This document shows positions 1-20,962 of a stretch of DNA of 64,000 bases, piece by piece. Source of the stretch: Brevibacterium luteolum (GTDB lineage: Bacteria > Actinomycetota > Actinomycetes > Actinomycetales > Brevibacteriaceae); the NCBI RefSeq assembly GCF_013004595.1, contig NZ_JABEMC010000001.1, positions 558,001-622,000 on the forward strand, read 5' to 3'. A program made the position numbers and the translations under genes. Positions within the stretch are counted from its first letter, which is position 1. Each line of letters begins with the position of its first letter. The notes beneath the pieces were generated by a model, which worked only from the letters and a program-made list of their open reading frames with translations, was not told where the DNA came from and made no database searches.

Positions 1-2
1 CG

Positions 3-1901
3 AACCAGCTGCTGGAGGGCAAGCTGGAGACGATGGGCTTCATCACCACCGAAGGCTATGAGTTCGTCCTCGAGATCGCCCGTCAGGCCGTGCCCGACGG
101 CTACGGAAACTCCTACTTCTGGGTCAAGCCCGAACGCATCGTCACCGCCGACCGTGTCAAGACCGTCGGCGGCCGTCTCGACTTCGAAGGCACCGAGGTC
201 CGCCCGTTCGACGAGGACGGCGCCAGGGCTGTCGCCGCTTGGTTCCGCGACGCCGGCATCAACGTCCTGGGCGTCAACTTCCTGCACGCCTACGCCAACC
301 CGGCCCACGAGCAGCGGATGCGTGAGATCCTCACCGAAGTCCACCCCGAGGCGATCGTGTCGCTGAGCTCCGAGGTGCTGCGGGAGTACCGCGAATACGA
401 GCGCTCGATGACCACCCTCGTCGATGCCTCTGTCAAGCCGAAGGTCTCCCGCTACGTCGCCAACATCCATGAGCGCCTCGATCAGTTCACCGGCGCCGAG
501 CACGGCGACCGTGAGCCGATCCCGTTCTACATCATGAAGTCCAACGGCGGTGTGCTCTCCGCCGACGAGGTCGTCCACCAGCCGATCACCACCGTGCTGT
601 CCGGGCCGGCGGCAGGCGCCCTCGGCGCCGGCCTCATCGCCCAGGAAGCCGGGTTCTCCAAAGTCCTCACCTGTGACGGCGGCGGCACCTCCACCGACGT
701 CACCGTCATCATCGACGGCGAACCGGCGCTCACAACCGAGGGGTCGGTGGGTGTCTACCCGTCGAAGATCCCAATGATCGACGTTGTCACCGTCGGTGCC
801 GGCGGCGGTTCGATCGCCTGGACGACCGAAGAGGGTCAGCTCAAGGTCGGCCCGCAGTCGGCTGGCGCCGATCCGGGACCGATCTGCTACGGCCAGGGCG
901 GCACCGAACCCACGATCACGGACGCCCACCTGCTGCTCGGTCGCATTCCGCCCCACCTCCTCGGCGGCGAGATCCCACTCGACGTCGAGGCCGCCCGCAC
1001 CGGCATCGAAGAACTCGCCGGTCGCCTCGGGCTCAGCGTTGAGAAGTGCGCGACCGGCATCCTGGAGATCTCCGCCTGGAACCAGGCGAATGCGCTGCGT
1101 CAGATCTCCGTCAAGCGCGGCCTCGACGTCCGTGACTTCATGCTCGCCTCCTTCGGCGGCTCCGGTTCGCTGCTGGCCTGCCGGCTCGTCGACCTCCTCG
1201 ACCTCGCAGGCGTCATCGTCCCGCTCAACCCCGGCAACGTCTCTGCGTTCGGGCTGCTGACCGTCGACGTCAAGAACGACTACGTGCAGACGCATGTCGC
1301 CAAGGACGAAGGACTCGACCTCGGCACCATCGACAGCATCTTCACCGCTCTGCAGGATCGTGCGGCAGCTGCACTCGACGCCGAAGGATTCGCCGCCGCC
1401 GACCACCGCTACGACCGGTCGGCTGACCTGCGCTACTTCGGGCAGGCCTTCGAAGTCCGCGTGCCGGCACCGGCCGGGGAGATCACCCGTGAGTGGGCCG
1501 ATGAGGTCACCGACGCCTTCCACACTGAGCACCGCCGCCTCTACGGCTACGACTTCAAGGGCGATGGCGACCAGTTCGTCGAATGGGTCAACCTGCGCGT
1601 CTCCGGCATCGGCCCGATCCAGCGGCCAGAGCTCGCCAAGCTTGGGGAGGCCTCTGCCGCCCAGCCGCTTAACGACAGGGCGCTGGCCAGCCAGCGTCAG
1701 GTGTGCTTCGACGCAGACGACGGCTACGTCACCGCCGACGTCTACTGGCGGCCCGAGCTGCTTTCCGGAGATGTCATCTCGGGTCCGGCGATCATCGAGG
1801 AGTTCGGTTCGACCGTGCCCGTGCATCCCGGCTTCACCGTCCGCGTCGATGACGCCGGCAACCTCGTCATCACCCGCAGCTCATCCGCCGACCAGTCCTG
1901 A
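3..1901 (+). CDS. Hydantoinase/oxoprolinase family protein, A (ATP-binding) subunit; 5' end lies upstream of the window
   Basis: The frame is open from base 3 (NQLLEGKLETMGFITT). Motifs: REYERSMTT, MKSNGG, LSGPAAG, DGGGTSTD, GAGGGSIA, GPQSAGADPGP, FGGSG, DLRYFGQ. Confidence 0.92.
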   Translation, partial: NQLLEGKLETMGFITTEGYEFVLEIARQAVPDGYGNSYFWVKPERIVTADRVKTVGGRLDFEGTEVRPFDEDGARAVAAWFRDAGINVLGVNFLHAYANPAHEQRMREILTEVHPEAIVSLSSEVLREYREYERSMTTLVDASVKPKVSRYVANIHERLDQFTGAEHGDREPIPFYIMKSNGGVLSADEVVHQPITTVLSGPAAGALGAGLIAQEAGFSKVLTCDGGGTSTDVTVIIDGEPALTTEGSVGVYPSKIPMIDVVTVGAGGGSIAWTTEEGQLKVGPQSAGADPGPICYGQGGTEPTITDAHLLLGRIPPHLLGGEIPLDVEAARTGIEELAGRLGLSVEKCATGILEISAWNQANALRQISVKRGLDVRDFMLASFGGSGSLLACRLVDLLDLAGVIVPLNPGNVSAFGLLTVDVKNDYVQTHVAKDEGLDLGTIDSIFTALQDRAAAALDAEGFAAADHRYDRSADLRYFGQAFEVRVPAPAGEITREWADEVTDAFHTEHRRLYGYDFKGDGDQFVEWVNLRVSGIGPIQRPELAKLGEASAAQPLNDRALASQRQVCFDADDGYVTADVYWRPELLSGDVISGPAIIEEFGSTVPVHPGFTVRVDDAGNLVITRSSSADQS

Positions 1902-1931
1902 GCCCGCGCCGAAACCAGAAGGAGACCAGAT

Positions 1932-3944
1932 ATGACGACAACCCCCACTGATTCCGGCTCGATGCTCTCGACCACTCCGCTGACCGGTGAGCAGCTCGAG
2001 GCCTACATCGCCGCCGAGCCGATCAACCCGGCCGGTCTGCCCCGGCCCTATGAGCACGGCGGACGTCTCACCCCGGAGGGCACCACCGTCGATCCGATCA
2101 TCGTCGAAATCGTCGAAGGCACCCTCGCCAGTGTTGAGATGGAAGTCGAGACCGCGATCTCGCGGACCTCGCGTTCGCCGATGATCCGCGACGCCCACGA
2201 CTTCCGCGCCGGCATCCACGACCGGCAGCTGCGCAAGCTCACCGGCCGGTCCTACTCCGCGCTCGTCCACCCGATCGTGCGCGACTTCCCGCTCGACACG
2301 ATGGAGGAAGGCGATGTCTTCTTCCACAACGATGTCTACGAGTCCGAAGGCGGCATCGGCCACCTGCCCGACCTGTGCGTGACTGTGCCGGTCTTCCACG
2401 ACGGCGAGGTGGTGTGCTTCGTGCAGGCCTTCGGCCACCATGACGACATCGGCGGTGCCTGCCCCGGCTCGATGCCCTCGGGTGCGACGAGCGTGCACGA
2501 AGAGGGACTCGCCGTCCCGCCGATCAAGCTGTGGTCCTGCGGTGAGCCCAACCGCGCTGCCCTGCGGATCATGACTCGCAACTCCCGCATGCCCGATTCG
2601 CTGGCCGCTGACCTCGACGCCGAATGCTCGGCCTGCCTCATGGGTGCGCGCCGGCTCGGGGAGCTCTTCTCCCGCTATGGCCGTGACACGATCGAAGCGG
2701 CCTTCGACACGATCCTCGACAACACCACCGAGCTGTACCGCCGGGAGATCCTGTCGAAGATCCCCGACGGCCAGTACGTGTGGGAGGACTACGCCGAGCA
2801 CGACGGTGTCGAGGACCCGAAGCTGCACACCCAGCGGATCACCCTGACGAAGACCTCGACGGGTGGGCCGGGCGATGGCCCGAGGCTCATCCTCGACTTC
2901 ACCGGCACCGCCGCTCAGGCGAGAGGACCGATCAACCACTGCGGCGACTACGTCGGCGGGAACTTCCTCAAAAAATGGCTCGCCCCGATCCTGCGCAACC
3001 TCGCCGACTCCCCGGAACGGATGGGCGAGCTCGACGTCAACGAGGGCATCGTCCCGCTCATCGAGATGCGCTTCCCGGAGAAGGGCACCCTGCTGACCCC
3101 GATCTACCCGGGTCCGACGAACGCCCGCACCTTCGTCATCCTGCGGCTGCTCGGCGTGCTCGCCGGGGTCGTCGCGAAGGCTGTCGACGGGAAGATGCCG
3201 GCAGACCAGGAGACGATCCGCTACACCGGTGTGTACGGCAAGGACCGCGACGGCAACGACTACCTCATGCGCGAGGTGCTCGGCGGCGGCTCGGGCGGCC
3301 GCTACTACGCCGACGGTGAGGACACCATCCACGTCGTGCCCGATTCCCGGAACCTGCCCACCGAATTCACCGAATCCCGGTTCCCCTTCCGCGTCGAGCG
3401 GCTCGGACTCGCCGTCGACTCCGGCGGCGCCGGACGCTACCGCGGTGGGCTGGGCTACGAGAAGCACATCCATATGCTCAAGGACGCGCACTTCATGTCG
3501 ATCGCCGACCGGTCGATCCTCGCTTGCTGGGGCGTCAAGGGCGGCAAGGCCGGCCGGCCGTTCCAGGTCACCATCGACCCCGGCGGGCCGAACGAACGCG
3601 AGATCGACGCGCTCGCTGATGCCGAACCGGTCCGGGCAGGTGAGACGATCCGCATCCGCACCACCGGAGGCGGCGGCTGGGGCGACCCGCTCGACCGTCC
3701 CCTCGACGAGGTCGAACGCGACTTGCGGTGGGGCAAGGTCAGCATCGACGGGGCCCGCAGCGACTACGGCGTCATCGCCAGCGTCGACGACGGTGAGGTC
3801 ACCATCGACACGGCGGCCTCGACGCAGCTGCGGCAGCAGATGCGCGAGAAGCGCACCGGTGAGGAGCCATTCTTCGACCGCGGACCCGGGTACGCGCGCC
3901 TGGCCGGCGACGGCAGCGACGCACCCGCTGTCGACTGGCTTTGA
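1932..3944 (+). CDS. Hydantoinase B/oxoprolinase family protein
   Basis: Motifs DPIIVEIV, RSPMIRDAHDF, HNDVY..GHLPD, GHHDDIGG..PGSM, DSGGAGRYRGGLG, TGGGGWGDP. RBS AAGGAG upstream. Confidence 0.92.
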   Translation: MTTTPTDSGSMLSTTPLTGEQLEAYIAAEPINPAGLPRPYEHGGRLTPEGTTVDPIIVEIVEGTLASVEMEVETAISRTSRSPMIRDAHDFRAGIHDRQLRKLTGRSYSALVHPIVRDFPLDTMEEGDVFFHNDVYESEGGIGHLPDLCVTVPVFHDGEVVCFVQAFGHHDDIGGACPGSMPSGATSVHEEGLAVPPIKLWSCGEPNRAALRIMTRNSRMPDSLAADLDAECSACLMGARRLGELFSRYGRDTIEAAFDTILDNTTELYRREILSKIPDGQYVWEDYAEHDGVEDPKLHTQRITLTKTSTGGPGDGPRLILDFTGTAAQARGPINHCGDYVGGNFLKKWLAPILRNLADSPERMGELDVNEGIVPLIEMRFPEKGTLLTPIYPGPTNARTFVILRLLGVLAGVVAKAVDGKMPADQETIRYTGVYGKDRDGNDYLMREVLGGGSGGRYYADGEDTIHVVPDSRNLPTEFTESRFPFRVERLGLAVDSGGAGRYRGGLGYEKHIHMLKDAHFMSIADRSILACWGVKGGKAGRPFQVTIDPGGPNEREIDALADAEPVRAGETIRIRTTGGGGWGDPLDRPLDEVERDLRWGKVSIDGARSDYGVIASVDDGEVTIDTAASTQLRQQMREKRTGEEPFFDRGPGYARLAGDGSDAPAVDWL

Positions 3945-3946
3945 GC

Positions 3947-4903
3947 ATGCGCGTGCTCATCGCCCTCGGCGGCAATGCGATGACCGCCCCCGACGGCTCA
4001 TCCTCACCGGATGACCAGCGGGCGGCGATCGCGCAGGCCTGCGGGCACATCGCCGAGCTGTTGGCCGACGGCCACGAGGTCATCATCACCCACGGCAACG
4101 GCCCACAGGTCGGCAACATCCTGCGCAAGAACGAACTCGCCGCCGCAGAGCTGCCGCCGGTGTCGCTCGACTGGTGCGGCGCACAGACCCAGGGGACGAT
4201 CGGGTTCACTATCGTCAACCGGCTCGAACAGGAGCTCACCACCCGGGGCATGCGCAGGCCAGTCGCCGCCGTCGTCACCCGCACGCGAGTCGACGGCGAC
4301 GACCCGGCCTTCGCCGACCCGGTCAAGCCGATCGGCACCTACCGGGATGCCGCCCATGCCGAGCAGATGAGCCGGCACGGGCAGGTGTGGAAGGACTTCG
4401 GGGCCCGCGGCTGGCGGCGCGTTGTGCCCTCCCCGCGGCCGCTGGAGATCCTGGAGACCCCGACGATCGCCACGCTCGTCGCCGCCGGGTGGGTGGTCGT
4501 GGCCGCCGGCGGAGGCGGCATCCCGGTGGTGGCTGATGGATCGGGCTGGAACGGCGTCGAGGCTGTCATCGACAAGGACCTCTCCGCCGCCCGGCTGGCC
4601 GCCGACCTCGACGTCGACCGGCTCGTCATCGCCACCGACGTCGAGCACGCGATCATCGGCTACGGCACCGAGGACGAACAGCCGATCGGTGAGATCACCG
4701 CCGCGCAGATGCAGCGGCTCGCCGATGCCGGGCACTTCGCCTCCGGGTCGATGGGCCCGAAGGTCGAAGCAGTCGTCGACTTCGCCGCCTCCGGCCGCGG
4801 CGTCGGCATCATCACCGCGCTTGCCGCCGTGCCGGCGGCCATCGCCGGGAGAACCGCCACGCGGGTCACACCAGCCGCCGCCAGGGGAGCAGCCAGCTCC
4901 TAG
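3947..4903 (+). CDS. arcC: Carbamate kinase
   Basis: IALGGNA, THGNGPQVG, AQTQG.IG, DDPAF..P.KPIG, GWRRVVPSP.P, GGGGIPV, GVEAVIDKD, GSMGPKVEA. Confidence 0.95.
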   Translation: MRVLIALGGNAMTAPDGSSSPDDQRAAIAQACGHIAELLADGHEVIITHGNGPQVGNILRKNELAAAELPPVSLDWCGAQTQGTIGFTIVNRLEQELTTRGMRRPVAAVVTRTRVDGDDPAFADPVKPIGTYRDAAHAEQMSRHGQVWKDFGARGWRRVVPSPRPLEILETPTIATLVAAGWVVVAAGGGGIPVVADGSGWNGVEAVIDKDLSAARLAADLDVDRLVIATDVEHAIIGYGTEDEQPIGEITAAQMQRLADAGHFASGSMGPKVEAVVDFAASGRGVGIITALAAVPAAIAGRTATRVTPAAARGAASS

Positions 4904-4937
4904 ACTGGAGACAGACTGCCAGGCTCAAGGAGGGATC

Positions 4938-5599
4938 GTGAGGCACGCACTCAACAGCGACATCGCGGGCATCGTGCTCGCCGCCGGTGCCGGTTCGCGC
5001 CTCGGTGTGCCCAAGGGTCTGCTGCGCACCGCCTGCGGGAAGCCGGTCGTGGCCAGCCTGTGCGACCAGCTGACGGCCGCTGGGCTTTCCGAGATCGTCG
5101 TCGTCACCGGTGCCGCCGCCGAGGCGGTCGCCGCCGGAGTGCCGGCAGGGGCCCGGGCCACCCACGCCCCGGACTGGCAGGACGGCCTGTCGGCCTCGCT
5201 GCGAGCCGGGCTGCGCGCTGTTGCCGATGCATCTGCCGACGAGCGTATCCGCGCTGTCGTCATCCTGCTCGCCGACGTCCCCGACATCACCGCGGCCGCC
5301 ATCGAGGCCGTCATCGCCGCTGCCCGCGTGCAGAGCATCGAGACGAGCCTCGTGCGGGCGACGTTCGGCGAGCGTCCCGGCCACCCTGTCGTCATCGGAT
5401 CGCAGCACTGGCAGCAGGTCATCGACACGGCCGCTGGGGACTCCGGCGCGAAGGCGGTCTTCGCCTCGGGAGCGGTGCGCGAAGTCGACTGCAGGCACCT
5501 GTGCGCCGGCATCGATATCGACACTCCCGGGCAGCTGCAGGCCGCCGGCCTGGAGCTGCCGGAGCTGCTGCCCGACGCATGCGCACGGGAGGAGAGCCG

Positions 5600-5603
<4 letters not shown>
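4938..5603 (+). CDS. mocA: Molybdenum cofactor cytidylyltransferase (MocA-like nucleotidyltransferase)
   Basis: GTG start after AAGGAGGG. Motifs LAAGAGSRLG.PK, GLSASL.AG, LADVP, GHPV, GDSGA, DIDTP. Context is Mo-hydroxylase genes. Confidence 0.8.
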
Positions 5604-6507
<904 letters not shown>

Positions 6508-6511
<4 letters not shown>

Positions 6512-7569
6512 CGATGACCGCAGTGCTCACCGACTTCGCGCGCAGCCTCGCCCGCCACGGATATCCCGCCGACCCCGGCCGGCTGCACACCGCCGTCGCC
6601 GGACTCGGCGCACTCGGCACGATCGAACGGCGTCACGTCTACACCGTCACCCGCGCCGCCTGGTGCACCACCGCTGAGCAGTGGGCGGACTTCAGCGTCC
6701 ACTTCGAGCGGTTCTTCTCACGCCACCCAGCCACCGCGTCCCCGCCGGACATCGAGGTCGAGGTCGAGGTGCCTGACGCGCTGCCCGGTGATGATGACAC
6801 CGATACCGGCGACCCCGAACCACGGGCTTCCGCAGCCTCGAAGGCCGCAGTGCTGCGCGAGACCGACATCGCCGAACTCCTCGATTCCCAGGCCGCCGAC
6901 GCCCGTGCCCAGCTCGCCCGGCTGCGCCTGAGCCCACCGCAGCGCCGCCGGCCGCGCTACCGGCGCGGGCGCGCCGACCGCCTGCACCTGCGGCAAGCCC
7001 TGCGCGAACTGCTCACCACCGGGGAGATCACGAGCCTGCCGGGACAGGAGCGCCGCGAGGTGCCCCGCCCGATCGTCATCGTCTTCGACGTCTCGGCAAG
7101 CATGCAGCCCTTCCACACCATGCAGCTGGCCTTCGCATCAGCCGCAGCCGAGGGCGGCCGGCACGTCAGCGTCTTCACCGCCGGCACCGAACTGACCGAT
7201 ATCACCGCAGGCGTGCGCACCATCCGGCCCGGTGCCCGCAGCGGACAGATCCCCGACCTCGGCGGCGGCACCCGGCTCGGTGAGACCCTCCAGCAGCTGA
7301 TCAACCGGCACGCCGGCAGGCTGCGCGGGGCCACCCTCATCGTCATGTCCGACGGATGGGAAGACGGCGACACCGAGAAACTCACCGCAGCCGCAGTCCG
7401 TGCCAGCCGTTTGTGCACACGGTTCCTGTGGGTCAACCCGCGGGCCGGGCGAACCGGCTGGCAGCCTGAGATCCGCGGCATCCGCGCGATCCGCCCGCAC
7501 GTCGACGCGCTGCTGCCCGGCACCACCATCGCCGACTACTTCCGGCTCGCCGCAGCCGTCGCGGGGTGA
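6508..7569 (+). CDS. VWA domain protein (CoxE-like)
   Basis: MIDAS-like DVSASM, GGTRLGE, MSDGWE, WVNP. Follows the MoxR gene with an ATGA overlap. Confidence 0.85.
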
Positions 7570-7574
7570 GCGGC

Positions 7575-8750
7575 ATGCGCGACATCGCCTCCGATATCCT
7601 CGACCTGCTCACCGGTGACGAGCCCTTCGCTGTGTGCACGGTCATCCGCACGTGGTCCTCAGCACCCCGCCCGGCCGGAACTGCCATGGCGGTCACCGCC
7701 TCGGGACGGGCCATCGGGTCGCTGTCCGGCGGATGCGTCGAAGGGGCCGTGTACGCCGCCGCCCAGCTCACCATCGACGACGGCCAGCCGCGCCTGGGCC
7801 GCTACGGCGTCTCCGATGACGAGGCCTTCGCCGTCGGCCTGGCCTGCGGCGGCCGGCTCGACGTCCTCATCCGTCGCGTCGATCCGGCCGATCCTGCCGA
7901 CACCGAGCCGCTGGCGGCCACATGCCGGCAGATCCTCCTCGATGAGCCGGCTGCCCTGCTCACCCGGATTCCGCTGGCCACCGACGATCTCGGCGAGCCG
8001 ACAGGGATGGAATACGTGCTCGCCCCGCCGGCTGGCCGCTGGCTGGCGATCACCGCGCCTGAGGCGGATGCCCCGACCGTGACTGGTTCGCTCGGTGACG
8101 GACAGCTCGACTACTCCGTCGTCGACAGCGCCGTTGGGCTGTTAGCCGCCGGAACGACCCAGATCCGCGAGTACGGCGAGCACGGCGAACGCCTCGACAG
8201 CGACACTGCCGTGCTCATCAGCGCCTTCTCGCGCAAGCCGCGGATGCTCATCTTCGGAGCCATCGACTATGCGCGTGCGCTCGCGGCGGCAGCAAAGCTC
8301 GTCGGCTACCACGTCACCGTCTGCGATGCCCGGCCCGTCTTCGCCACCCCGGCGCGCTTCCCAGAGGCCGATGAGGTCGTCGTGTCCTGGCCGCATCGCT
8401 ATCTGCAGGCCGAGCTCGATGCCGGCCGGGTCGAAGAGAGCACCGCGATCGCCGTGCTCACCCACGATCTGAAGTTCGACGTGCCGCTGCTGCAGGTCGC
8501 CCTCGGCTGCCCGGCGGCCTACGTCGGGGCGATGGGCAGCAGGCGCACGAACGATCGGCGCATCGCAGCGCTGCGCGATGCCGGACTGCCAGAAGAGCTC
8601 ATCGACCGGCTCTATGCGCCCATCGGCCTCGACCTCGGCGCTCGCACCCCGGAGACGACCGCGATCTCGATCCTCGCTGAGATCACCCGGGAGCGGTGGC
8701 AGGCCAGCGGTGCGCCGCTGCGCGACACCACCGGCCCGATCCACTCCTGA
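7575..8750 (+). CDS. xdhC: XdhC/CoxI-family molybdenum cofactor insertion chaperone
   Basis: SAPRPAG, GSLSGGCVEGAV, AFAVGLACGG, FATPARFP, LTHD.KFD, YVGAMGSR, APIGLDLGARTP. Confidence 0.92.
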   Translation: MRDIASDILDLLTGDEPFAVCTVIRTWSSAPRPAGTAMAVTASGRAIGSLSGGCVEGAVYAAAQLTIDDGQPRLGRYGVSDDEAFAVGLACGGRLDVLIRRVDPADPADTEPLAATCRQILLDEPAALLTRIPLATDDLGEPTGMEYVLAPPAGRWLAITAPEADAPTVTGSLGDGQLDYSVVDSAVGLLAAGTTQIREYGEHGERLDSDTAVLISAFSRKPRMLIFGAIDYARALAAAAKLVGYHVTVCDARPVFATPARFPEADEVVVSWPHRYLQAELDAGRVEESTAIAVLTHDLKFDVPLLQVALGCPAAYVGAMGSRRTNDRRIAALRDAGLPEELIDRLYAPIGLDLGARTPETTAISILAEITRERWQASGAPLRDTTGPIHS

Positions 8751-8776
8751 GCGGCCCGATCCACTCCTGAGCGGCC
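8732..8776. repeat. 20-bp tandem duplication (CGGCCCGATCCACTCCTGAG x2 plus a partial copy) spanning the xdhC stop
   Basis: Exact copies at 8732-8751 and 8752-8771. Confidence 0.9.
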
Positions 8777-8807
8777 GGCCGGCCCCAAGGCTCAGCCGGC
8801 CGCTCAG
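8767..8807. terminator. GC-rich hairpin between the convergent xdhC and fdrA-fusion genes
   Basis: CTGAGCGGCCGGC ... GCCGGCCGCTCAG inverted repeat. Confidence 0.6.
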
Positions 8808-8814
8808 CTCGTGC

Positions 8815-12790: not shown

Positions 12791-12826
12791 CTCACAAGCG
12801 TAGGGCTGACTGCTAGGGTGGGGGAC
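12791..12826. promoter_or_regulatory. Back-to-back divergent leaderless promoters for the DUF2877/fdrA operon and pucR
   Basis: Minus-strand TACGCT (12797-12802) lies 6 nt before ATG 12790. Plus-strand TAGGGT (12814-12819) lies 7 nt before ATG 12827. No strong SD on either side. Confidence 0.6.
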
Positions 12827-14527
12827 ATGGCAAATGCCGATAATCATGAATCTCTGACTCGGCAGAATCTGCCAGTCAGCGGAGGTGATGTCACCGTCCG
12901 CGACGTCCTCGACCTGCCCTCCCTCTCCGGCACCCGCGTGCTGGCCGGCGCCGACGGTCTCGACCGCATCGTCTCTCGCGTCAACGTCATGGAAGTCCCC
13001 GACATCCTGCCGTGGGTGCGTGCCCAGGAGCTGCTCATCACCACGGGCTACCCGCTTCAGGGGCAGCAGTTCGACCTCGGTGAGCTCGTGCGCCAGTTCG
13101 CCGACCGCCAGCTGGCAGGCGTCGGCGTCAAACCCGGCCGCTATCTCCATGAGATCCCCGGCGAGGTGCTTACCGCAGCGGATTCCGCAGGACTGCCGAT
13201 CCTGCTGCTGCCCCACGGGGTCGGCTTCGACGAGATCATCCACGAGGTGCTCGGCACGGTGCTCGCCCGTCGTGAACAGGACTTGCAGCAGGCCGAGCAG
13301 ATCCTTCACGAACTCGTCACCATCGTCGTCACCGGCGGAGAGCTCGATGAGGTCTGCAGTCGCATCGCCAGTCATGTCAAAGGCACTGTCGCCGTGACGA
13401 CGATGGACGGCCGGGTGACCGCGGTGGCCGGGCAGCTGCCGCTGGCAGAGCTCCAGCAGCTGACCTGCTTCGATGTCGCCGGCCGTTTCCGGGTCGAGCA
13501 GACCCGGGTCGGTGAGGTGCAGAAAGCCAACGGGATCTGCAGTCTGGCGGTGCGGATCCGCGGCGGGACCCGCGACCTCGGCCGCCTCGTCCTCTTCACC
13601 GACCATCCGATGAGCCACAGCCAGCAGCACGTCGTCGACCAGGCCTCTGCAGCCGCCGCCCTCGTGCTCACGAAGATGCACGCGATCTCGGCTGTTGAGA
13701 GCAAGTACAAGGCTGACTTCGTCCACGATGTGCTGCGCGGCCGCATCGTGGCAGCCGACCGGATCCTGTCGCATGCGACCTCGCTGGGCTGGGACTTGGA
13801 CCGTGAACTCGTGGTCGTCGTCGCCGAGTACGACGACACCGGCGAGCCTATCGAGACGATGGAGAAGCAGTCCCTGCAGGAGCGCTTCGCCCGCGCCTGG
13901 ACCTCGGCGGTCACCCAGGGCGACGCCGAGGCGGTGGTCGTCGGGGCAGGGGATGAGGTCACTGTCATCGCCGGTGTGACACCAGAGGAATCCGTTGAAC
14001 GCACCACCGCCCGCGTCGAACGTTGGGTCGGCGACGTGCACGGCGTCGGCGGTGGCGGCCGGCTGACCTTCTCTACCGGCATCGGTCGCACAGCGGCGGA
14101 TCTCCACGCTCTGCCGGCCGCCTACCAGGAAGCGCGCAAGGCCGTGGAGGTCGGCCGCAGGCTCTACGGCGAGCAGGCGATCAGCCACTTCGATGCCCTC
14201 GGCGTCTTCCGGCTGCTGTCGCTCATCGACGATGAGGAGGAAGTGCGGGCCTTCATCTCCGACACCCTCGGGGTGCTCGCCGACCGGAGCGCCTCCTCCG
14301 CCGACCTGCGCGAGACCCTGCGGGTGCTGCTGGACAAGAACCTCAACGTCGCTGAGACCGCCCGTGAGATGCACTTCCACTACAACTCGCTGCGCTACCG
14401 GATCAGCAAACTCGAGCGCATCCTCGGGCCCTTCATGACCGATGCGCGGCGGCGGCTGGCCATCCATCTGGCACTGCAGGCGATGTACCTCACGGACCTC
14501 ACGGACGGAAAGCGCACACACCGCTGA
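12827..14527 (+). CDS. PucR-family transcriptional regulator
   Basis: N-terminal PucR domain (VLAGADGLDR.V..VNVMEVPDILPWV...ELLITTGY). C-terminal HTH (LRETL..LL..NLNVAETAREMHFHYNSLRYRISKLE). Confidence 0.92.
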   Translation: MANADNHESLTRQNLPVSGGDVTVRDVLDLPSLSGTRVLAGADGLDRIVSRVNVMEVPDILPWVRAQELLITTGYPLQGQQFDLGELVRQFADRQLAGVGVKPGRYLHEIPGEVLTAADSAGLPILLLPHGVGFDEIIHEVLGTVLARREQDLQQAEQILHELVTIVVTGGELDEVCSRIASHVKGTVAVTTMDGRVTAVAGQLPLAELQQLTCFDVAGRFRVEQTRVGEVQKANGICSLAVRIRGGTRDLGRLVLFTDHPMSHSQQHVVDQASAAAALVLTKMHAISAVESKYKADFVHDVLRGRIVAADRILSHATSLGWDLDRELVVVVAEYDDTGEPIETMEKQSLQERFARAWTSAVTQGDAEAVVVGAGDEVTVIAGVTPEESVERTTARVERWVGDVHGVGGGGRLTFSTGIGRTAADLHALPAAYQEARKAVEVGRRLYGEQAISHFDALGVFRLLSLIDDEEEVRAFISDTLGVLADRSASSADLRETLRVLLDKNLNVAETAREMHFHYNSLRYRISKLERILGPFMTDARRRLAIHLALQAMYLTDLTDGKRTHR

Positions 14528-14688
14528 TGAGCGATCCACCGCCAGATCGCAATGTGCGGGCGAAACTACCCAAACCAGCACGGACGTGTTTGGCATAACT
14601 TGACGTGACGCGCACCTCGTTGTGTCCCTACGGTTGACACATGCCGTTACGGCTATGACAGTTCGAAAGCCGACTGGTTGGGGGAGCA

Positions 14689-16197
14689 ATGAGTTTCGGA
14701 TGGACACTGCACGGTGACGGGAAGAGTCCTGCACCGGGCAAGGCGGTAGCCCCTCATGAGCGCCTGACCTGGCCGCGCACGGTCGGACTCGGCGTTCAGC
14801 ACGTCGTGGCGATGTTCGGCGCAACGTTCGTTTTTCCCGTCGTCATGGGCCTGAATCCCCAGCTGGCGGTCATGATGAGCGGTGTCGCCACCATCATCTT
14901 CCTGCTCATGGTCAACGGCAAGGTTCCCAGCTATCTCGGCACCTCCGCCGCTTTCGTCGGCGGCGTCGCGGCTGTCACCGCCCAAGGCGGCACACCCCAG
15001 CAGGTGACCGGCGCGATCATGATCGCCGGCCTCGTCCTGGCCGCCTGCGGCATCTTCATCCACTTCATGGGCGCTGCTGTGCTGACGAAGATCATGCCGC
15101 CGGTGGTCACCGGTGCGGTCGTCATGCTCATCGGTTTCAACCTCGCCCCGGTCGTCGCGAACGTGTACTGGCCGCAGGACCAGTGGATCGCCTTCATCGT
15201 CATGTTCGTCATCATCGTCATGTCGGTGGCTCTGCGCGGATTCCTCGGCCGCATCGCCGTCTTTCTCGGCCTGGCTTTCGGGTATGTGCTGTCCTGGATC
15301 TTCGATTTGGCCTTCGGTCCGATCACGGCCTTCAACGCCGCCACCGGAGAGGTCGACACCCATATGCGCGTCGACTGGTCCGGCGTCCTCGACGCCCCGT
15401 GGTTCGGTCTGCCGCCAGTCACTGACAGCGCCGCCGGGGTCGTCGGCATGCACCTGCCGGAGTTCAACGCCGCCTTCATCATCCTCATGCTCCCGGCTGT
15501 CATCGCGCTCATCGCCGAGAACGTCGGTCACGTCAAGGCTGTGGAGGAGATGACGAAGACCCCGCTGGACAAGTACATGGGCCGGGCGCTGACCGCCGAC
15601 GGTGTCGCTACCGCCGTGGCCACCTCGGTCGGAGGCTCACCGACGACGACCTACGCTGAGAACATCGGCGTCATGGCCTCCACCCGCGTCTACTCGACAG
15701 CGGCCTACTACGTTGCCGCGCTGGTGGCGATCGTCTTCGGCCTTTCACCGAAGTTCGGCGCGCTCATCTCCGCGGCGCCTGGTGGCGTGCTCGCCGGCAT
15801 CACCGTCGTGCTCTACGGCATGATCGGACTGCTCGGCGCCAAGATCTGGACGGAGAACAAAGTCGACTTCTCCAATCCGCTCAACATGGTCCCGGTGGCC
15901 GCTGGCATCATCATCGCCATCGGCGACATCGGACTGAAAGTGACCGAGACGTTCACCCTGGCTGGCATCGCATTGGGTACGATCGTCGTTCTGGTGATGT
16001 ACCACTTCTGCCGGATCATCGCCCCCGCAGAGCTGCGGGAGGCGGCTGACAGCGCAGGAGGCGCACTCATCACCGTCGGCGAACCCGGATTGCACAATCT
16101 CGAAGAGCTCGGTCTCGAGGACGACCACGGCCGGCGACGCCGTGGCGGCCGGACTGCCGACCACGATCCACACAGACCGGAGGACATCAGGGAATGA
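14689..16197 (+). CDS. NCS2 nucleobase:H+ symporter, UraA/RutG (pyrimidine) type
   Basis: GVQHVVAMFG, PSYLGTS, PPVVTG, AENVGHVKAV, signature PTTTYAENIGVMASTRVYS. Confidence 0.92.
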   Translation: MSFGWTLHGDGKSPAPGKAVAPHERLTWPRTVGLGVQHVVAMFGATFVFPVVMGLNPQLAVMMSGVATIIFLLMVNGKVPSYLGTSAAFVGGVAAVTAQGGTPQQVTGAIMIAGLVLAACGIFIHFMGAAVLTKIMPPVVTGAVVMLIGFNLAPVVANVYWPQDQWIAFIVMFVIIVMSVALRGFLGRIAVFLGLAFGYVLSWIFDLAFGPITAFNAATGEVDTHMRVDWSGVLDAPWFGLPPVTDSAAGVVGMHLPEFNAAFIILMLPAVIALIAENVGHVKAVEEMTKTPLDKYMGRALTADGVATAVATSVGGSPTTTYAENIGVMASTRVYSTAAYYVAALVAIVFGLSPKFGALISAAPGGVLAGITVVLYGMIGLLGAKIWTENKVDFSNPLNMVPVAAGIIIAIGDIGLKVTETFTLAGIALGTIVVLVMYHFCRIIAPAELREAADSAGGALITVGEPGLHNLEELGLEDDHGRRRRGGRTADHDPHRPEDIRE

Positions 16198-17090
16198 AGC
16201 CAGCGGCTTTCGCCTACAACCGCGCAGCATCAGTCGACCACTGCCTCGAACTGCTGACTCAGCACGGGGCCGACGCGAAGCTGCTGGCAGGCGGCCAGAG
16301 CCTCATCCCGGTGCTGAACATGCGCCTGGCCGCCCCCGCTCACCTCATCGACATCTCCAGGCTGAGCGAGCTGGGCTCCATCGAGGTCACCGATTCCTGC
16401 GTGCGCGTCGGCGCTGCGGTCACACACGCGGAACTCGAAGCCGATGACCACGCCTATGCCGCGCTGCCGATCCTGCGTCAGGCGCTGGTCAATGTCGCGC
16501 ATCCGGCGATCCGCAATCGCGGCACCACCGTCGGCTCGATCGCCCATGCCGATCCGAACGGAGAGATGCCGGCCGTCCTCGCCCTCACCGGCGGCACTGC
16601 GCACGCAGTCTCGTCATCCGGGTCCCGGCAGATCGACGCAGCTGAGCTCTTCATCGGCCCGCTGGAGACCTGCTTGGAAACCGATGAGCTCATCACCCAT
16701 GTCGACTTCCACCGGTTCCCGCCCGGCACCCGCACCGGCTTCACCGAACTCGCCCGTCGTTCAGGCGACTACGCTCTCGCCGGGGTGGCCATGGCGCTGA
16801 CTGCCGAGGAATCCACGATCACCGGGCTCCGCCTGTCCTTCGTCTCCGTCACCGACCTGCCAGAGGTTCTCGACATGAGCGAGCGGGTCACCGGGATGGA
16901 GCTGAGGGCCACCACTGACCTGTGCGCGGCCGTGACCGAGGCGGTCGAGGCAACCATCGACCCAGCCGGCGACATCCACGCCACCGCCGACTACCGCCGC
17001 CACATCACCAAGGTCATGGCCCGCAGACTGGCCGTCGAGCTCAGCTGTCGGCCACCGCAGCCGCCGACGGCAGGCCAACCGGACAGGTGA
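16194..17090 (+). CDS. Mo-hydroxylase FAD-binding medium subunit (CoxM/CutM-like)
   Basis: MKPAAFAY, AGGQSLIP.LNMRLA.P, AIRNRGTTVGSIAHADP, DIHATADYR. Confidence 0.92.
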   Translation: MKPAAFAYNRAASVDHCLELLTQHGADAKLLAGGQSLIPVLNMRLAAPAHLIDISRLSELGSIEVTDSCVRVGAAVTHAELEADDHAYAALPILRQALVNVAHPAIRNRGTTVGSIAHADPNGEMPAVLALTGGTAHAVSSSGSRQIDAAELFIGPLETCLETDELITHVDFHRFPPGTRTGFTELARRSGDYALAGVAMALTAEESTITGLRLSFVSVTDLPEVLDMSERVTGMELRATTDLCAAVTEAVEATIDPAGDIHATADYRRHITKVMARRLAVELSCRPPQPPTAGQPDR

Positions 17091-17140
17091 CGGGCAGTCC
17101 AACCGGACTGGTGACGGGCAGGCCAACCGGACTGGTGACG
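17069..17140. repeat. 24-bp tandem repeat x3 (GGCAGKCCAACCGGACWGGTGACG) across the coxM stop
   Basis: Units at 17069-17092, 17093-17116 and 17117-17140, with no spacers. Confidence 0.9.
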
Positions 17141-17208
17141 GCAGGTGGCGGCAGCGACCGCAACGACGAAAATGACACAGACATCGGCTGAGAGAAGGAG
17201 CGAAACAC

Positions 17209-17814
17209 GTGAGCAGCCTGGCACACGCTGAGGGAACCGAGCCGGAACCGCACCGCACCGTGCGGCTGATGGTCAACGGCACAGCGCACGAGATCTCCGT
17301 CGCCGACCGCCGGCTGCTCTCCGACGCCCTGCGCCACGATATCGGGCTGACTGGTACCCACGTCGGCTGCGAACACGGAGTGTGCGGCGCCTGCACCATC
17401 CAGGTCGACGGCAAGCCGATGCGCTCCTGCCTCATGCTCGCTGTCGCCGCCGAAGGCAGCGACCTCCGCACCGTCGAAGGCATCGGCAATGACCCCGAGC
17501 GCCCTTCCGATGTGCAGCAGGCGTTCATCGACTGCCACGGCCTGCAGTGCGGCTTCTGCACTCCTGGGTTCATCACCACGATCGACGCGTTCATCGAGGA
17601 GAACCCCGACCCCACACCCGAGGAGGCCCGCGAGGCGATCTCCGGGAACCTGTGCCGCTGCACCGGCTACCAGAACATCGTCGCCTCCGTGCTGCGGGCA
17701 GCCGAACTGCGCAGGACCGGATCCGTTCCCGAGGCGGCCGCCGCCTCGGGTGCGGGCGACAGGGAATCCGGCGCGGACGGGGCACCCGGCTCGGACGGGG
17801 AAGGACAGCGATGA
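17209..17814 (+). CDS. Mo-hydroxylase (2Fe-2S) small subunit (CoxS/CutS-like)
   Basis: GTHVGCEHGVCGACT...RSC, QCGFCTPG, GNLCRCTGY. GTG start after AAGGAG. Confidence 0.95.
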   Translation: MSSLAHAEGTEPEPHRTVRLMVNGTAHEISVADRRLLSDALRHDIGLTGTHVGCEHGVCGACTIQVDGKPMRSCLMLAVAAEGSDLRTVEGIGNDPERPSDVQQAFIDCHGLQCGFCTPGFITTIDAFIEENPDPTPEEAREAISGNLCRCTGYQNIVASVLRAAELRRTGSVPEAAAASGAGDRESGADGAPGSDGEGQR

Positions 17815-20261
17815 CGACACGGATGTTCGGGCAGAAGATCGCCCGCAAGGAGGACCCGCGGTTGGTGACCGGCAACGGCTCCTATGTCGATGACCTGTCC
17901 TCGCCCCACACGCTGGCCGCGGCGTTCGTGCGCAGTCCGCACGCCCATGCGAAGATCCTCGACATCGACGTCTCCGGCGCCCTCGACATCGACGGCGTGT
18001 ACGCCGTGTGGACGCACGAAGACCTGCCCGGCGCAGCCGGTGAGCGGCTGCCGATGCTGCTGCCGCACCCCTCACTCATCGCGCCGAAGACCGGGTACGC
18101 GCTCGCCAAGGACGACGTCAACCACGTCGGAGAGCCGATCGCCATGGTCATCGCCGCCAACCGCTACATCGCCGAAGACGCCGCCAGCGCCGTGCACGTC
18201 GACTACGAGTACCTGCCTGCCGTCGTCGGGGTCGCGACCTCGCGCGAGGCCGAGCACGCTGTGCATGCCGATGTCGCCGACAACATCGCCGCTCACAGCA
18301 TCGACGAGGTCGGCGCGGTGGACGAGGCGATGGCCGGTGCCCCACATGTGCTCGAGATCGACCTCGACATCGAGCGCAGCGCCTGCATGCCGATGGAGGG
18401 CAAGGGCGTGCTCGCCCGCTGGAACCGCCACGATGAGAGCATGATCGTGTACTCCTCGACGCAGACTTCGACCGGACTGCGCGCGGCACTGGCAGCGAAG
18501 CTGGAGATGCCGCTGACGAAGATGGAGGTCATCACCCCCGATGTGGGCGGAGGATTCGGCGTCAAGATCAACCACCCCTGGCCCGAAGAGGTCTGCGTGG
18601 CAGCCGCCGCCCGGGCACTGGACCGGGAGATCGCCTGGACCGAGGACCGGCGCGAGCACTTCATCTCCTCCGCCCATGAGCGCCAGCAGCTCCAGCAGGT
18701 GCGCATCGGCTTCGACGACGAGGGCAAGATCCACGCCCTCGACGTGAAGTTCTGGCACGACAACGGCGCCTACCTGCCCTACGGGGTGATCCCGCCGCTC
18801 AACACCGCCACCCACGTGCTCGGGCCGTATGTCGTCCGCAACTACCGCTGCGAATGGTGGTCGCTGTACACCAACACCGTCATCGTCACCCCCTACCGCG
18901 GGGCCGGGCGCCCACAGGGCGTGTACATGATGGAACGGGCGATGGACGCGGTCGCCGATGCGCTCGGCCGCGACCGCACCGAGGTGCGCGAGGCCAACTT
19001 CGTGCGCGAGTTCCCGCATCCGATCGGCCTCGTCCTGCAGGACGGGCGCGAGGGCATCTACGACTCCGGTGACTTCCCGACCTCGATGGCCAAGCTCAAA
19101 GAGCTCATCGGCTGGGACGACTTCGCTGCCTACCGTGCGAAAGCCGCCGCCGAGGGCCGGCGGGTCGGCATCGGCGTGGCCTGCTATGTCGAAGGCACCG
19201 GCGCCGGGCCGTATGAGGGCGGGCACATCGAAGTCGAAACCTCCGGGCAGGTCAACGTGTGGACCGGCCTGACCACTCAGGGGCAGGCACACGCGACCGT
19301 GTTCGCCCAGATCGTCGCCGATGAGCTCGGAGTGCCGATCGACCGGGTCAACGTCGTCACCGGTGATACCCGCAAGACCCCCTACTCGGTGGGCACCTGG
19401 GGTTCGCGCGGGGCGGTCATGAGCGGCAACGCCGTGCACCTGACGGCGAAGAAGCTCAAGCAGAAGGCACTGACGATCGCCGGGCGCTCACTCGAAGTCG
19501 ACCCGGCCGACCTGGAGATCGTCGACGGGATCGTGCAGGTCAAAGGCGATCCCTCAGCCTCGATTCCGCTCGAGGTCATCTCGGTGATGTCGAACCCGCT
19601 GCGCTACGCCTTCGACGACGCTGCCAAGGCCGCCACCCAGTTCGGGATGCCATCCGATGAGTCGAAGCCGCCGATGCTGCCTGGTGAGTCACCGGGACTG
19701 GAGGAGCGGGACTTCTTCTCCCCGCAGCGGACCACCTTCGCCTCCGGCATGCACGCCGCGATCGTCGAGACCGACCCGGAAACCGCCGACATCACGGTGC
19801 TGCGCTACTGCGTCGTCCACGACTGCGGCAAGATGATCAACCCGCTCGTCGTCGAAGGACAGGTGCTCGGCGGCGTCGCGCAGGGGATCGCCGGGGCACT
19901 GTACGAGAAAATGGCCTACGACGAGACCGGCCAGCTGCTCAACGCCTCCTTCATGGACTTCCTTATGCCGTTCGCCAGCGAGATCCCGCCTGTCGAAACC
20001 GACCACCTGGAGACCCCGAGCCCGCTCAACCCCCTCGGCATCAAGGGCGCCGGTGAGGCCGGGACGATCCCCGGTGCCTCGGTCATCGCCTCGGCGATCG
20101 AAGACGCTGAAGGCTTCCCCATCACCCGCATGCCGATCTCCCCATCAGAGCTGTGGGAGCTGCGTGAGAAGCATGCCGCCGGCCAGTGGCCGTCCCTCCA
20201 GCATCCGGCCTGCGTGCCGGAGACCGACACCGCACGAGCAGAAGAAAAGGTGACCCGATGA
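17811..20261 (+). CDS. Mo-hydroxylase molybdopterin large subunit (form II CoxL-like / xanthine dehydrogenase family)
   Basis: RKEDPRLVTG, RSPHAHA, DVGGGFG.K, PYRGAGRP, QGQAHAT, GTWGSRG, GQVLGGVAQG, KGAGEAG (catalytic Glu). Confidence 0.93.
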   Translation: MTTRMFGQKIARKEDPRLVTGNGSYVDDLSSPHTLAAAFVRSPHAHAKILDIDVSGALDIDGVYAVWTHEDLPGAAGERLPMLLPHPSLIAPKTGYALAKDDVNHVGEPIAMVIAANRYIAEDAASAVHVDYEYLPAVVGVATSREAEHAVHADVADNIAAHSIDEVGAVDEAMAGAPHVLEIDLDIERSACMPMEGKGVLARWNRHDESMIVYSSTQTSTGLRAALAAKLEMPLTKMEVITPDVGGGFGVKINHPWPEEVCVAAAARALDREIAWTEDRREHFISSAHERQQLQQVRIGFDDEGKIHALDVKFWHDNGAYLPYGVIPPLNTATHVLGPYVVRNYRCEWWSLYTNTVIVTPYRGAGRPQGVYMMERAMDAVADALGRDRTEVREANFVREFPHPIGLVLQDGREGIYDSGDFPTSMAKLKELIGWDDFAAYRAKAAAEGRRVGIGVACYVEGTGAGPYEGGHIEVETSGQVNVWTGLTTQGQAHATVFAQIVADELGVPIDRVNVVTGDTRKTPYSVGTWGSRGAVMSGNAVHLTAKKLKQKALTIAGRSLEVDPADLEIVDGIVQVKGDPSASIPLEVISVMSNPLRYAFDDAAKAATQFGMPSDESKPPMLPGESPGLEERDFFSPQRTTFASGMHAAIVETDPETADITVLRYCVVHDCGKMINPLVVEGQVLGGVAQGIAGALYEKMAYDETGQLLNASFMDFLMPFASEIPPVETDHLETPSPLNPLGIKGAGEAGTIPGASVIASAIEDAEGFPITRMPISPSELWELREKHAAGQWPSLQHPACVPETDTARAEEKVTR

Positions 20262-20962
20262 AGATCTCCTCGACCGCCACGATGAACGCCGACCCGCAGA
20301 CAGCCTGGGACGCCTTCCACAATGAGAAGATTCTCGCGGCCACCATCCCCGGCGTGGAGTCCTTCAGCGATGAAGGCGGCGGGAAGTATGCGGTCGTCGT
20401 GACGATGGGGGTCGCGGCGATCAAGGGCACCTACAACGGCACCGTCGTCTTCTCCGAAGAGCGTGAGCCCGAATCCTTCGTGCTCACCGTCAACGGGGCC
20501 GGGGGACCGGGCACCATCGGCGCCGAGGTCGCGGTGCAGCTCAGCGCCGCCGAAGACGGGGGCAGCACCGTGACCTGGGAGGCCGATGCGATCCTCGGCG
20601 GGCCGATCGGCGGGGTCGGGCAGCGGATGCTCGGCGGTGTCGCCAAGCGGATCGCGACGAAGTTCTTCGCCGATATCGACAGGGCGATCGCCGAGGGCGT
20701 GCCGGAAGCCGGCGAGCAGGCCGCACCCGGTGCACAGGCCGGCGCACCGGCAGCAGCCAACTCCCGCTCACTGTCGGACACAGGACTCGTGACAGCACCG
20801 GGGTCCGAGGGCTCAGCAATCAGCGGCGCCGCCGGGCACGCACCGGCGGCAGCCGGGGCGTGCAGCCCGGGGACCGGCGGCTTCCTCACCGGCATGGCCG
20901 CCGGTGCCGGTATCGCGCTGCTCGGTGTTGTCGTCGGAGCGATCATCAGCGGCCGGCGCTGA
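20258..20962 (+). CDS. CoxG/SRPBCC domain protein with C-terminal membrane anchor
   Basis: W..F....LA..IPG, GG..GGVGQRM.GGVA, Ala-rich linker, then hydrophobic GMAAGAGIALLGVVVGAII followed by RR. Confidence 0.85.
   Translation: MKISSTATMNADPQTAWDAFHNEKILAATIPGVESFSDEGGGKYAVVVTMGVAAIKGTYNGTVVFSEEREPESFVLTVNGAGGPGTIGAEVAVQLSAAEDGGSTVTWEADAILGGPIGGVGQRMLGGVAKRIATKFFADIDRAIAEGVPEAGEQAAPGAQAGAPAAANSRSLSDTGLVTAPGSEGSAISGAAGHAPAAAGACSPGTGGFLTGMAAGAGIALLGVVVGAIISGRR

Follow-up and report, generated by a model that had tools for sequence, protein, structure and literature searches.

The oxidative breakdown of uracil and thymine has been known biochemically since the 1950s. In Rhodococcus erythropolis, work by Soong, Ogawa and Shimizu in 2001–2002 reportedly described uracil/thymine dehydrogenase (EC 1.17.99.4), barbiturase (EC 3.5.2.1) and ureidomalonase (EC 3.5.1.95). 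To my knowledge this classical pathway includes no ATP-dependent step, and no role in it has been described for HyuAB, the paired subunits of the ATP-dependent hydantoinase/oxoprolinase family. Here I analyze a gene island of ~21 kb in Brevibacterium luteolum, at positions 1–20962 of a stretch of 64,000 nucleotides (hereafter the window; positions 558001–622000 of contig C1 of the source genome). It combines genes for a nucleobase permease, a molybdenum (Mo) hydroxylase, a HyuAB pair, an AllFGH-like enzyme and a carbamate kinase. Gene content and comparison with relatives make it likely that this island serves pyrimidine catabolism by the barbiturate route; the mechanism as a whole, including a predicted carbamoyltransferase step, is also favored, with noticeably more reserve.

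The island shares with the R. erythropolis pathway a uracil-type permease and a three-subunit Mo hydroxylase, whose large subunit, CoxL, is 60% identical to a CoxL encoded 4–7 kb from barbiturase in strain NBRC 15567, and a barbiturase orthologue is present in the B. luteolum genome. The relatedness of the two loci also extends to hyuA, which follows coxG in both. They differ in that the B. luteolum barbiturase is unlinked, on contig C15, and in that AllH, FdrA, AllG and carbamate kinase replace, here and at most Actinomycetota loci, the amidase that follows barbiturase in R. erythropolis.

Oxalurate and ureidomalonate are both N-acylureas, one CH2 apart. In Escherichia coli, AllFGH is the oxamic transcarbamylase and works with the carbamate kinase AllK; the available text of the study concerned characterizes it on oxalurate only, and names urease-negative enterobacteria as carriers of the enzyme (Kim & Kim, 2024; PMC11326118). 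A second report places AllFGHK beside biuret and triuret genes in metagenome-assembled genomes (MAGs) of nitrifiers (PMC12625717). The island resembles the E. coli system in having the same three protein families and a carbamate kinase at one locus, in a host without urease. The reaction proposed for it is also of the same kind, in that phosphate would split an N-acylurea into an amide and carbamoyl phosphate, which would then serve to make ATP. In contrast, its FdrA and AllG are fused, the order is H-FG, arcC lies in a separate operon, and identity to the E. coli proteins is 34–45%. It also lacks an allantoin gene context, occurs in an aerobic actinobacterium alongside a Mo hydroxylase, and would act on ureidomalonate, one CH2 longer than oxalurate.

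Proposed pathway

In the proposed route, a RutG/UraA-like NCS2 permease would import the base, and a PucR-family regulator would control the route. The Mo hydroxylase CoxMSL, together with CoxG, would oxidize a uracil- or thymine-type base at C6 to (5-methyl)barbiturate, with MocA, MoxR, a CoxE-type VWA protein and XdhC as its presumed maturation factors. Ring opening, which would yield ureido(methyl)malonate, would fall to the C15 barbiturase, to the ATP-dependent HyuAB, or to both. AllH and the fused FdrA-AllG would split ureido(methyl)malonate with phosphate into carbamoyl phosphate and malonamate, a counterpart, with one carbon more, of the oxalurate reaction known from E. coli, and carbamate kinase would convert carbamoyl phosphate and ADP into ATP, CO2 and NH3. 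The malonyl moiety would probably be handled by a family III CoA-transferase and a fused AccD/AccA-like carboxyltransferase encoded on contig C16.

Association of the cluster with barbiturase

I searched 60 related genomes, 36 of them congeners, which together with B. luteolum give a set of 61. In the clusters of four of five other families, a PF09663 gene directly follows arcC, and its product scores 704.9 bits, at ~88% identity, against PDB entry 5hwe ('Barbiturase'), the best cyanuric acid hydrolase reaching 338.5. B. luteolum has a single PF09663 gene, outside the window at C15:9382–10641 on the reverse strand; its product is 75% identical to the protein of the R. erythropolis locus and scores 587.6 bits to 5hwe versus 314.4 to the best cyanuric acid hydrolase. 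For this protein and for those of the related clusters alike, the score to 5hwe is thus roughly double that to any cyanuric acid hydrolase structure, and the alternative identity as cyanuric acid hydrolase (AtzD/TrzD) was rejected for this reason, although NCBIfam NF052395 nevertheless scores these proteins above its cut-off. Two papers (PMC3758960; PMC4051656) describe the enzyme and its family and report that it does not act on cyanuric acid; according to the second, the barbiturase subgroup has Gln where the Azorhizobium enzyme has Arg188. The barbiturase call made here uses overall scores.

Within the 61 genomes, PF09663 occurs in nine of the 12 that carry FdrA/AllG and in none of the other 49. 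The sequence-only reading, made from the window's letters, had proposed oxidative pyrimidine catabolism for this locus, and the barbiturase orthologue in the genome, as well as those in the clusters of a congener and of four other families, supports that proposal.

A wider survey used one genome per species, scanned with barbiturase; from 558 relatives, 80 loci were kept, of which 65 span at least 19 kb. arcC lies directly upstream of barbiturase at 61 of these 65 loci. Within the 10-kb flank of barbiturase, HyuB is found at 44 of the 65 and HyuA at 39, while a family III CoA-transferase occurs at 41 and a fused AccD/AccA-like carboxyltransferase at 15; allB, allC, allD and allE are found at none of the 65. 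For 55 of the 80 loci, the search for AllG (PF06545) was extended to the whole genome; it is present in 49 of these genomes, mostly on the same contig as barbiturase. The six genomes without it are five of Rhodococcus/Rhodococcoides and one Nocardioides MAG.

Beside the barbiturase gene on C15 (C15:9382–12204; L033), and divergent from it, lies a gene for a second NCS2 permease, which TIGR03173 places in the xanthine-permease subfamily (416 bits; cut-off 414). The same barbiturase-NCS2 pair stands immediately after coxG in one congener, G017. Together the two genes may form an uptake module of their own, perhaps with barbiturate as its substrate.

A third locus, at C16:11301–14068 (L115), carries a family III CoA-transferase and a fused AccD/AccA-like carboxyltransferase between hisG-bPH_6 and hisF. 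Both have counterparts, 55–63% identical, inside barbiturase clusters of Aeromicrobium and Rhodococcus. The hisG-bPH_6/hisF site carries part of the island or flanks it in other families, and the pathway genes of B. luteolum therefore look spread over three loci.

The AllFGH-like module, carbamate kinase and the amidase

FdrA, AllG (DUF1116) and AllH (DUF2877) are encoded together, with carbamate kinase at the same locus. The fused fdrA-allG, which joins an AllF-like, succinyl-CoA-synthetase-alpha-like domain to DUF1116, is a single open reading frame at 8815–11799 on the reverse strand (PF00549 and PF06545, the latter with E 2.1e-90), starting with a GTG at 11799 behind AGAAGGAGAAG. Its FdrA part scores 374 bits to NF004760, below the cut-off of 433. 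The fusion protein is the candidate for the catalytic portion of the predicted ureidomalonate carbamoyltransferase. allH, on the same strand at 11783–12790 with an estimated start, matches PF11392 (E 2.9e-19). arcC lies at 3947–4903 on the forward strand (PF00696), with an alternative TTG start at 3941 that overlaps the hyuB stop; ArcC scores 313 bits to NF009007 (cut-off 266) and 339 bits to TIGR00746, slightly below its cut-off of 358, and is 40% identical to E. coli YbcF/AllK over 288 amino acids. An 18-base tandem repeat of 3.2 copies lies within allH at 12612–12669 and encodes APxDVT repeats.

Variants of the cluster bear on the function of this module. Three full-length Rhodococcus/Rhodococcoides barbiturase loci, which make up three of the four arcC-less loci, have an amidase directly after barbiturase, and two shorter Rhodococcus loci likewise show no arcC. 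The R. erythropolis NBRC 15567 locus reads xdhC-pucR-NCS2-carboxyltransferase-pucR-barbiturase-amidase-aminotransferase-NCS2-coxMSLG-hyuA. An orthologue of this amidase follows barbiturase at three of the 65 loci, all of Rhodococcus type. The congener G034 has the order mocA-nmrA-hyuA-hyuB-moxR-coxE-xdhC-pucR-NCS2-coxMSLG, followed by a PF01425 amidase, and arcC, allH and fdrA/allG are absent from its cluster. A Pfam/NCBIfam scan finds no amidase in the cluster of the window, and the best tblastn match in B. luteolum to the barbiturase-adjacent amidase of R. erythropolis is 37% identical and lies far from the cluster, at C1:25309. An amidase and the allFGH-plus-arcC set thus appear to be alternatives at the same place in one pathway, swapped twice, in Rhodococcus and in G034.

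A swap of this kind is known from oxalurate metabolism, where E. coli uses AllFGH and Klebsiella the hydrolytic amidase HpxY (PMC12625717; PMC11326118). From the amidase/AllFGH swap, mirrored for oxalurate, I infer that AllH and FdrA-AllG would split ureidomalonate with phosphate, and probably constitute a candidate ureidomalonate carbamoyltransferase acting by phosphorolysis. A transcarbamylase replacing the hydrolytic release of urea, as had been suggested from the window, is accordingly supported by the presence of arcC at 61 of the 65 loci and of AllG in 49 of the 55 genomes, and by the amidase swap.

A urease profile finds no urease in the B. luteolum genome, and the release of urea would therefore waste nitrogen. 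This agrees with the remark on urease-negative enterobacteria made for the E. coli enzyme (PMC11326118). Among the 61 genomes, urease is found in two of 12 AllFGH-type genomes versus 17 of the 49 others, which is only mildly supportive.

Permease and molybdenum hydroxylase

The NCS2 permease (14689–16197, forward strand; PF00860) is of the pyrimidine (RutG/UraA) type: it scores 344 bits to the RutG model of NCBIfam, 245 to uracil permease and 152 to xanthine permease, all below the equivalog cut-offs. It is followed on the same strand by coxM, encoding the FAD-binding medium subunit (16194–17090; PF00941, PF03450), coxS, encoding the small subunit with two [2Fe-2S] clusters (17209–17814; NCBIfam Mo-hydroxylase small-subunit matches, e.g., NF043084 at 169.9 bits), coxL, encoding the molybdopterin large subunit and candidate uracil/thymine dehydrogenase (17811–20261; PF01315, PF02738, PF20256), and coxG, encoding an SRPBCC-type accessory subunit (20258–20962; PF06240, E 5e-25), whose ATG at 20258 overlaps the coxL stop. 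The region from 17069 to 17145, across the coxM stop and the coxM-coxS spacer, consists of a 24-base tandem repeat of 3.2 copies, in which contigs of a strain 95–99% similar carry insertions and deletions.

In the database, this CoxL carries the name of a different enzyme. It scores 1433 bits to NF040766, 'aerobic carbon-monoxide dehydrogenase large subunit' (group 5), well over the cut-off of 950, and the coxD/E/F/G-like accessory genes would also suit a cluster for aerobic CO dehydrogenase. Its active-site loop reads PYRGAGR, however, where that of the aligned CO dehydrogenase CutL (1ffu_B) reads AYRCSFR, and it lacks the copper-binding Cys of CutL. Its operon also begins with a nucleobase permease, and its orthologues adjoin barbiturase. 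A CO dehydrogenase cluster is consequently hardly credible, and because of the missing Cys loop and the linkage of its orthologues to nucleobase permeases and barbiturase, the NF040766 name probably is a systematic misannotation of this CoxL clade, as judged from sequence and gene context.

The nearest structure to CoxL is that of quinoline 2-oxidoreductase (1t3q, 408 bits), and other near structures include a CO dehydrogenase large chain annotated as CoxL (8uem) and a nicotine-pathway hydroxylase. The island resembles the Form II CoxL-type Mo hydroxylases and quinoline 2-oxidoreductase in its L, M and S subunits, in its coxG/D/E/F-like accessory genes and in having an N-heterocycle hydroxylase as nearest structure. 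What sets its CoxL orthologue group apart is that the genes are linked to those for a nucleobase permease, for HyuAB and for barbiturase, and CoxL paralogues within the cluster-bearing genomes are only 36–40% identical.

These comparisons also bear on a purine route as in E. coli, in which a xanthine-type Mo dehydrogenase would be coupled to AllFGH and ArcC cleaving allantoin-derived oxalurate. In its favor are the PucR-family regulator, the allB-, allE-, gcl- and glxK-like genes found on contig C12, and the characterization of AllFGH and AllK only on oxalurate (PMC11326118). Yet the permease scores as pyrimidine type, and CoxL reaches only 144 bits to xanthine dehydrogenase (1jro) versus the 408 to quinoline oxidoreductase. 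No allB, allC, allD or allE homologue is found in the window or at the 65 barbiturase/arcC loci, and AllG tracks barbiturase, in 49 of 55 genomes. I regard the purine route as improbable.

In B. luteolum itself, whole-genome tblastn bears out the earlier statement that the window holds no classical allantoin locus, as no homologue of E. coli allB, allC, allD or allE lies there; the homologues of allantoin genes are on C12 or elsewhere on C1. The region C12:165000–180200 is a separate allantoin/glyoxylate cluster, with allE-, glxK-, allB-, gcl- (67% identical to E. coli), glxR- and hyi-like genes. Purine-derived nitrogen is thus probably handled at C12, and not at the island.

Conservation of the cluster and the role of HyuAB

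The fused FdrA-AllG is found in four of the 36 congeners, and adjacent, separate fdrA and allG genes occur in six genomes from five other families of the order. I compared their neighborhoods by tblastn of the window proteins on 20-kb stretches. The four congeners with the fused gene are fully syntenic with the island. Five of the six unfused genomes show the order allH-fdrA-allG followed by pucR-NCS2-coxMSLG; four of these five have hyuA-hyuB and arcC downstream, and the fifth, G058, has hyuA-hyuB but no arcC match. The sixth, G057, is represented by short contigs, as is G040. A pucR orthologue occupies the same position in all related clusters. The co-occurrence of this gene set in other genomes, which the sequence-only reading had put forward as a check, is hence found both within the genus and in five other families. 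In one related genome, G037, the island (L026, 2451–8461; L019, 2878–7648) is interrupted by transposase genes of the ISL3, DDE and Mu types and by duplicated DUF6318/PKD gene pairs, which suggests that this region was recently rearranged.

HyuA and HyuB are the best-conserved protein pair of the island and are kept in every variant, including the Rhodococcus type. HyuB orthologues (77–86% identical) and CoxL orthologues (63–76%) are found in an identical set of 13 of the 61 genomes, namely the 12 with FdrA/AllG and G034. In the window, hyuA (1–1901, forward strand; PF01968 with E 2.9e-88, PF05378, PF19278) is cut at its 5′ end, and its ATG lies 226 bases before base 1, at L003:19775. hyuB follows on the same strand at 1932–3944 (PF02538, E 6e-134).

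The hydantoinase/oxoprolinase family includes N-methylhydantoinase, caprolactamase, 5-oxoprolinase and the acetone and acetophenone carboxylases. The island pair shares with this family the two-subunit HyuA/HyuB architecture and full-length Pfam matches, but all its NCBIfam equivalog scores are far below cut-off: 458 of 1000 bits for the caprolactamase alpha subunit CapA, the best match of HyuA, 196 of 1000 for CapB, and 242 of 1500 for the acetophenone carboxylase ApcC. The nearest structures to HyuB are N-methylhydantoinase (7hk5, 220.6 bits) and 6yra_B (185.8 bits), deposited as 'Hydantoinase'.

HyuAB may open the ring, because four congeners (G015, G018, G024 and G034) have the island without a barbiturase. 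B. luteolum encodes a barbiturase, and HyuAB is therefore not required as ring opener here. Taken together, I assign HyuAB only tentatively as the opener of the (methyl)barbiturate ring, with the balance tipping slightly to the other side. Where HyuAB and barbiturase coexist, one may act on the uracil-derived ring and the other on the thymine-derived one, or the two reactions may not be equally reversible.

This coexistence can be read in another way, as two parallel branches in which barbiturase and HyuAB open different rings (for instance barbiturate and 5-methylbarbiturate, or another oxidized heterocycle), the AllFGH-like enzyme acting on the product of HyuAB and not on ureidomalonate. The invariant core formed by HyuAB and CoxMSL in the same 13 of 61 genomes, only nine of which have barbiturase, would be consistent with this, as would the overlap of hyuB and arcC in the window. 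Against it, the position of arcC upstream of barbiturase at 61 of 65 loci ties carbamoyl phosphate to the product of barbiturase, and no gene indicates a second substrate. Two branches are unlikely.

It is also conceivable that HyuAB is the key opener of some other N-heterocycle or cyclic ureide (hydantoins, N-methylhydantoin from creatinine, or s-triazines) and that the link to barbiturase is incidental. N-methylhydantoinase is indeed the nearest solved relative of HyuB, and AllFGHK stands beside biuret and triuret genes in nitrifier MAGs (PMC12625717). I nevertheless consider this quite unlikely, given an AtzD-family partner 75–88% identical to the crystallized barbiturase, which is reported to be inactive on cyanuric acid (PMC4051656), and annotated clusters in which no creatininase, biuret hydrolase or allophanate hydrolase is found.

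Observations weighing against the proposed pathway

A number of observations weigh against the pathway proposed here. The first concern barbiturase, which is absent from the window itself; in G015, G018, G024 and G034, whose genomes are 99–100% complete, the cluster is present and PF09663 is absent; ring opening in these genomes would be left to HyuAB, or another substrate would be involved. At one locus, L107, no arcC adjoins barbiturase, and the Nocardioides MAG has the arcC-barbiturase pair with no AllG found in it. If barbiturase opens the ring, HyuAB is left without an assigned step, yet it is kept in every cluster.

Others concern the later steps and the substrate. Similarity to the E. 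coli K-12 proteins is moderate by tblastn, at 34% identity for FdrA, 45.5% for YlbE, and 38% for AllH to YlbF across 97 amino acids only. The allantoin/glyoxylate genes on C12, together with a weak AllD-like match (29%), leave oxalurate as a possible substrate, PucR regulators are typical of purine catabolism, and NCBIfam names CoxL an aerobic CO dehydrogenase. Urease is also absent from the amidase variant G034, a misfit with a simple urea-releasing ureidomalonase, and no enzyme for malonamate is evident.

Extent and organization of the locus

The island genes were read from six-frame open reading frames scanned against Pfam and NCBIfam. Fifteen genes, co-oriented or divergent, fill positions 1–20962, the last base being that of the coxG stop codon. 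The sequence-only reading had described at least 15 genes around one PucR-family gene, and every component that it listed is present in its place, with very strong family matches. It had also held that the cluster continues upstream of base 1; only the first 226 bases of hyuA lie there, and no further cluster genes. In 20 kb of annotated upstream sequence, the next gene 5′ of hyuA encodes an HrpB-type helicase on the other strand, beyond which are ilvBNC, serA, leuB, ilvE and other housekeeping genes. This is the stretch that had been named as the place to look for barbiturase, ureidomalonase or amidase genes; it shows the helicase and housekeeping genes, and barbiturase is instead on C15.

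Downstream of coxG are an FAH-family gene (21029–21835) and gltX, which were considered as members of the cluster and rejected, since neither recurs at any related locus. The island is delimited to 15 genes for this reason, and because of the helicase and housekeeping genes upstream.

The maturation genes follow arcC on the forward strand. The mocA-type Mo cofactor cytidylyltransferase gene (4938–5603; PF12804; TIGR03310 at 84.6 bits, below cut-off) has an estimated start, a GTG at 4938 behind AAGGAGGG. It is followed by genes for a MoxR/CoxD-type AAA ATPase, a Mo-enzyme maturation factor (5600–6511; PF07728, PF00004), whose ATG at 5600 overlaps the mocA stop, a CoxE-type VWA protein (6508–7569; PF05762, E 6.1e-37) and an XdhC/CoxF-type chaperone for Mo cofactor insertion (7566–8750; PF13478, PF02625). 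A perfect 20-base tandem repeat of 2.2 copies lies across the xdhC stop, at 8732–8776. The pucR-family regulator gene, divergent from allH, extends from approximately 12827 to 14527 on the forward strand (PF07905, PF17853, PF13556). Stop/start overlaps are found at eight junctions (hyuB/arcC, mocA/moxR, moxR/coxE, coxE/xdhC, NCS2/coxM, coxS/coxL, coxL/coxG and allH/fdrA), and these indicate an organization into three predicted transcription units, or operons, plus pucR.

Contigs 95–99% similar to most of window positions 1–20000 were found in four oligo-dT metatranscriptome runs of one study. Their use as proof of transcription was rejected, since these are contigs only and carry-over of DNA is possible; they show only that the samples contain a close relative bearing the cluster.

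Implications

Beyond B. luteolum, the survey suggests a more general scheme, which I put forward as somewhat short of an even proposition: that hundreds of Actinomycetota, B. luteolum among them, run an energy-conserving oxidation of pyrimidines. In it, CoxMSL would be the long-orphan uracil/thymine dehydrogenase, HyuAB an ATP-driven ring opener able to replace barbiturase, and the AllFGH-type enzyme a ureidomalonate carbamoyltransferase feeding carbamate kinase, this last module giving way to a hydrolytic amidase in one congener and in Rhodococcus.

In a literature search that left most subscription papers outside its reach, no paper was found that links barbiturase with carbamate kinase, FdrA/DUF1116/DUF2877 or a hydantoinase, or that assigns genes to uracil/thymine dehydrogenase (EC 1.17.99.4) or ureidomalonase. 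The island and its relatives supply candidate genes for both the uracil/thymine dehydrogenase and the ureidomalonase step, and hint that AllFGH, an enzyme class identified only recently, has a second substrate. They may also offer a natural experiment on how urease-less bacteria recover nitrogen and ATP from the ureido group, genomes with AllFGH and ArcC being set against those with an amidase.

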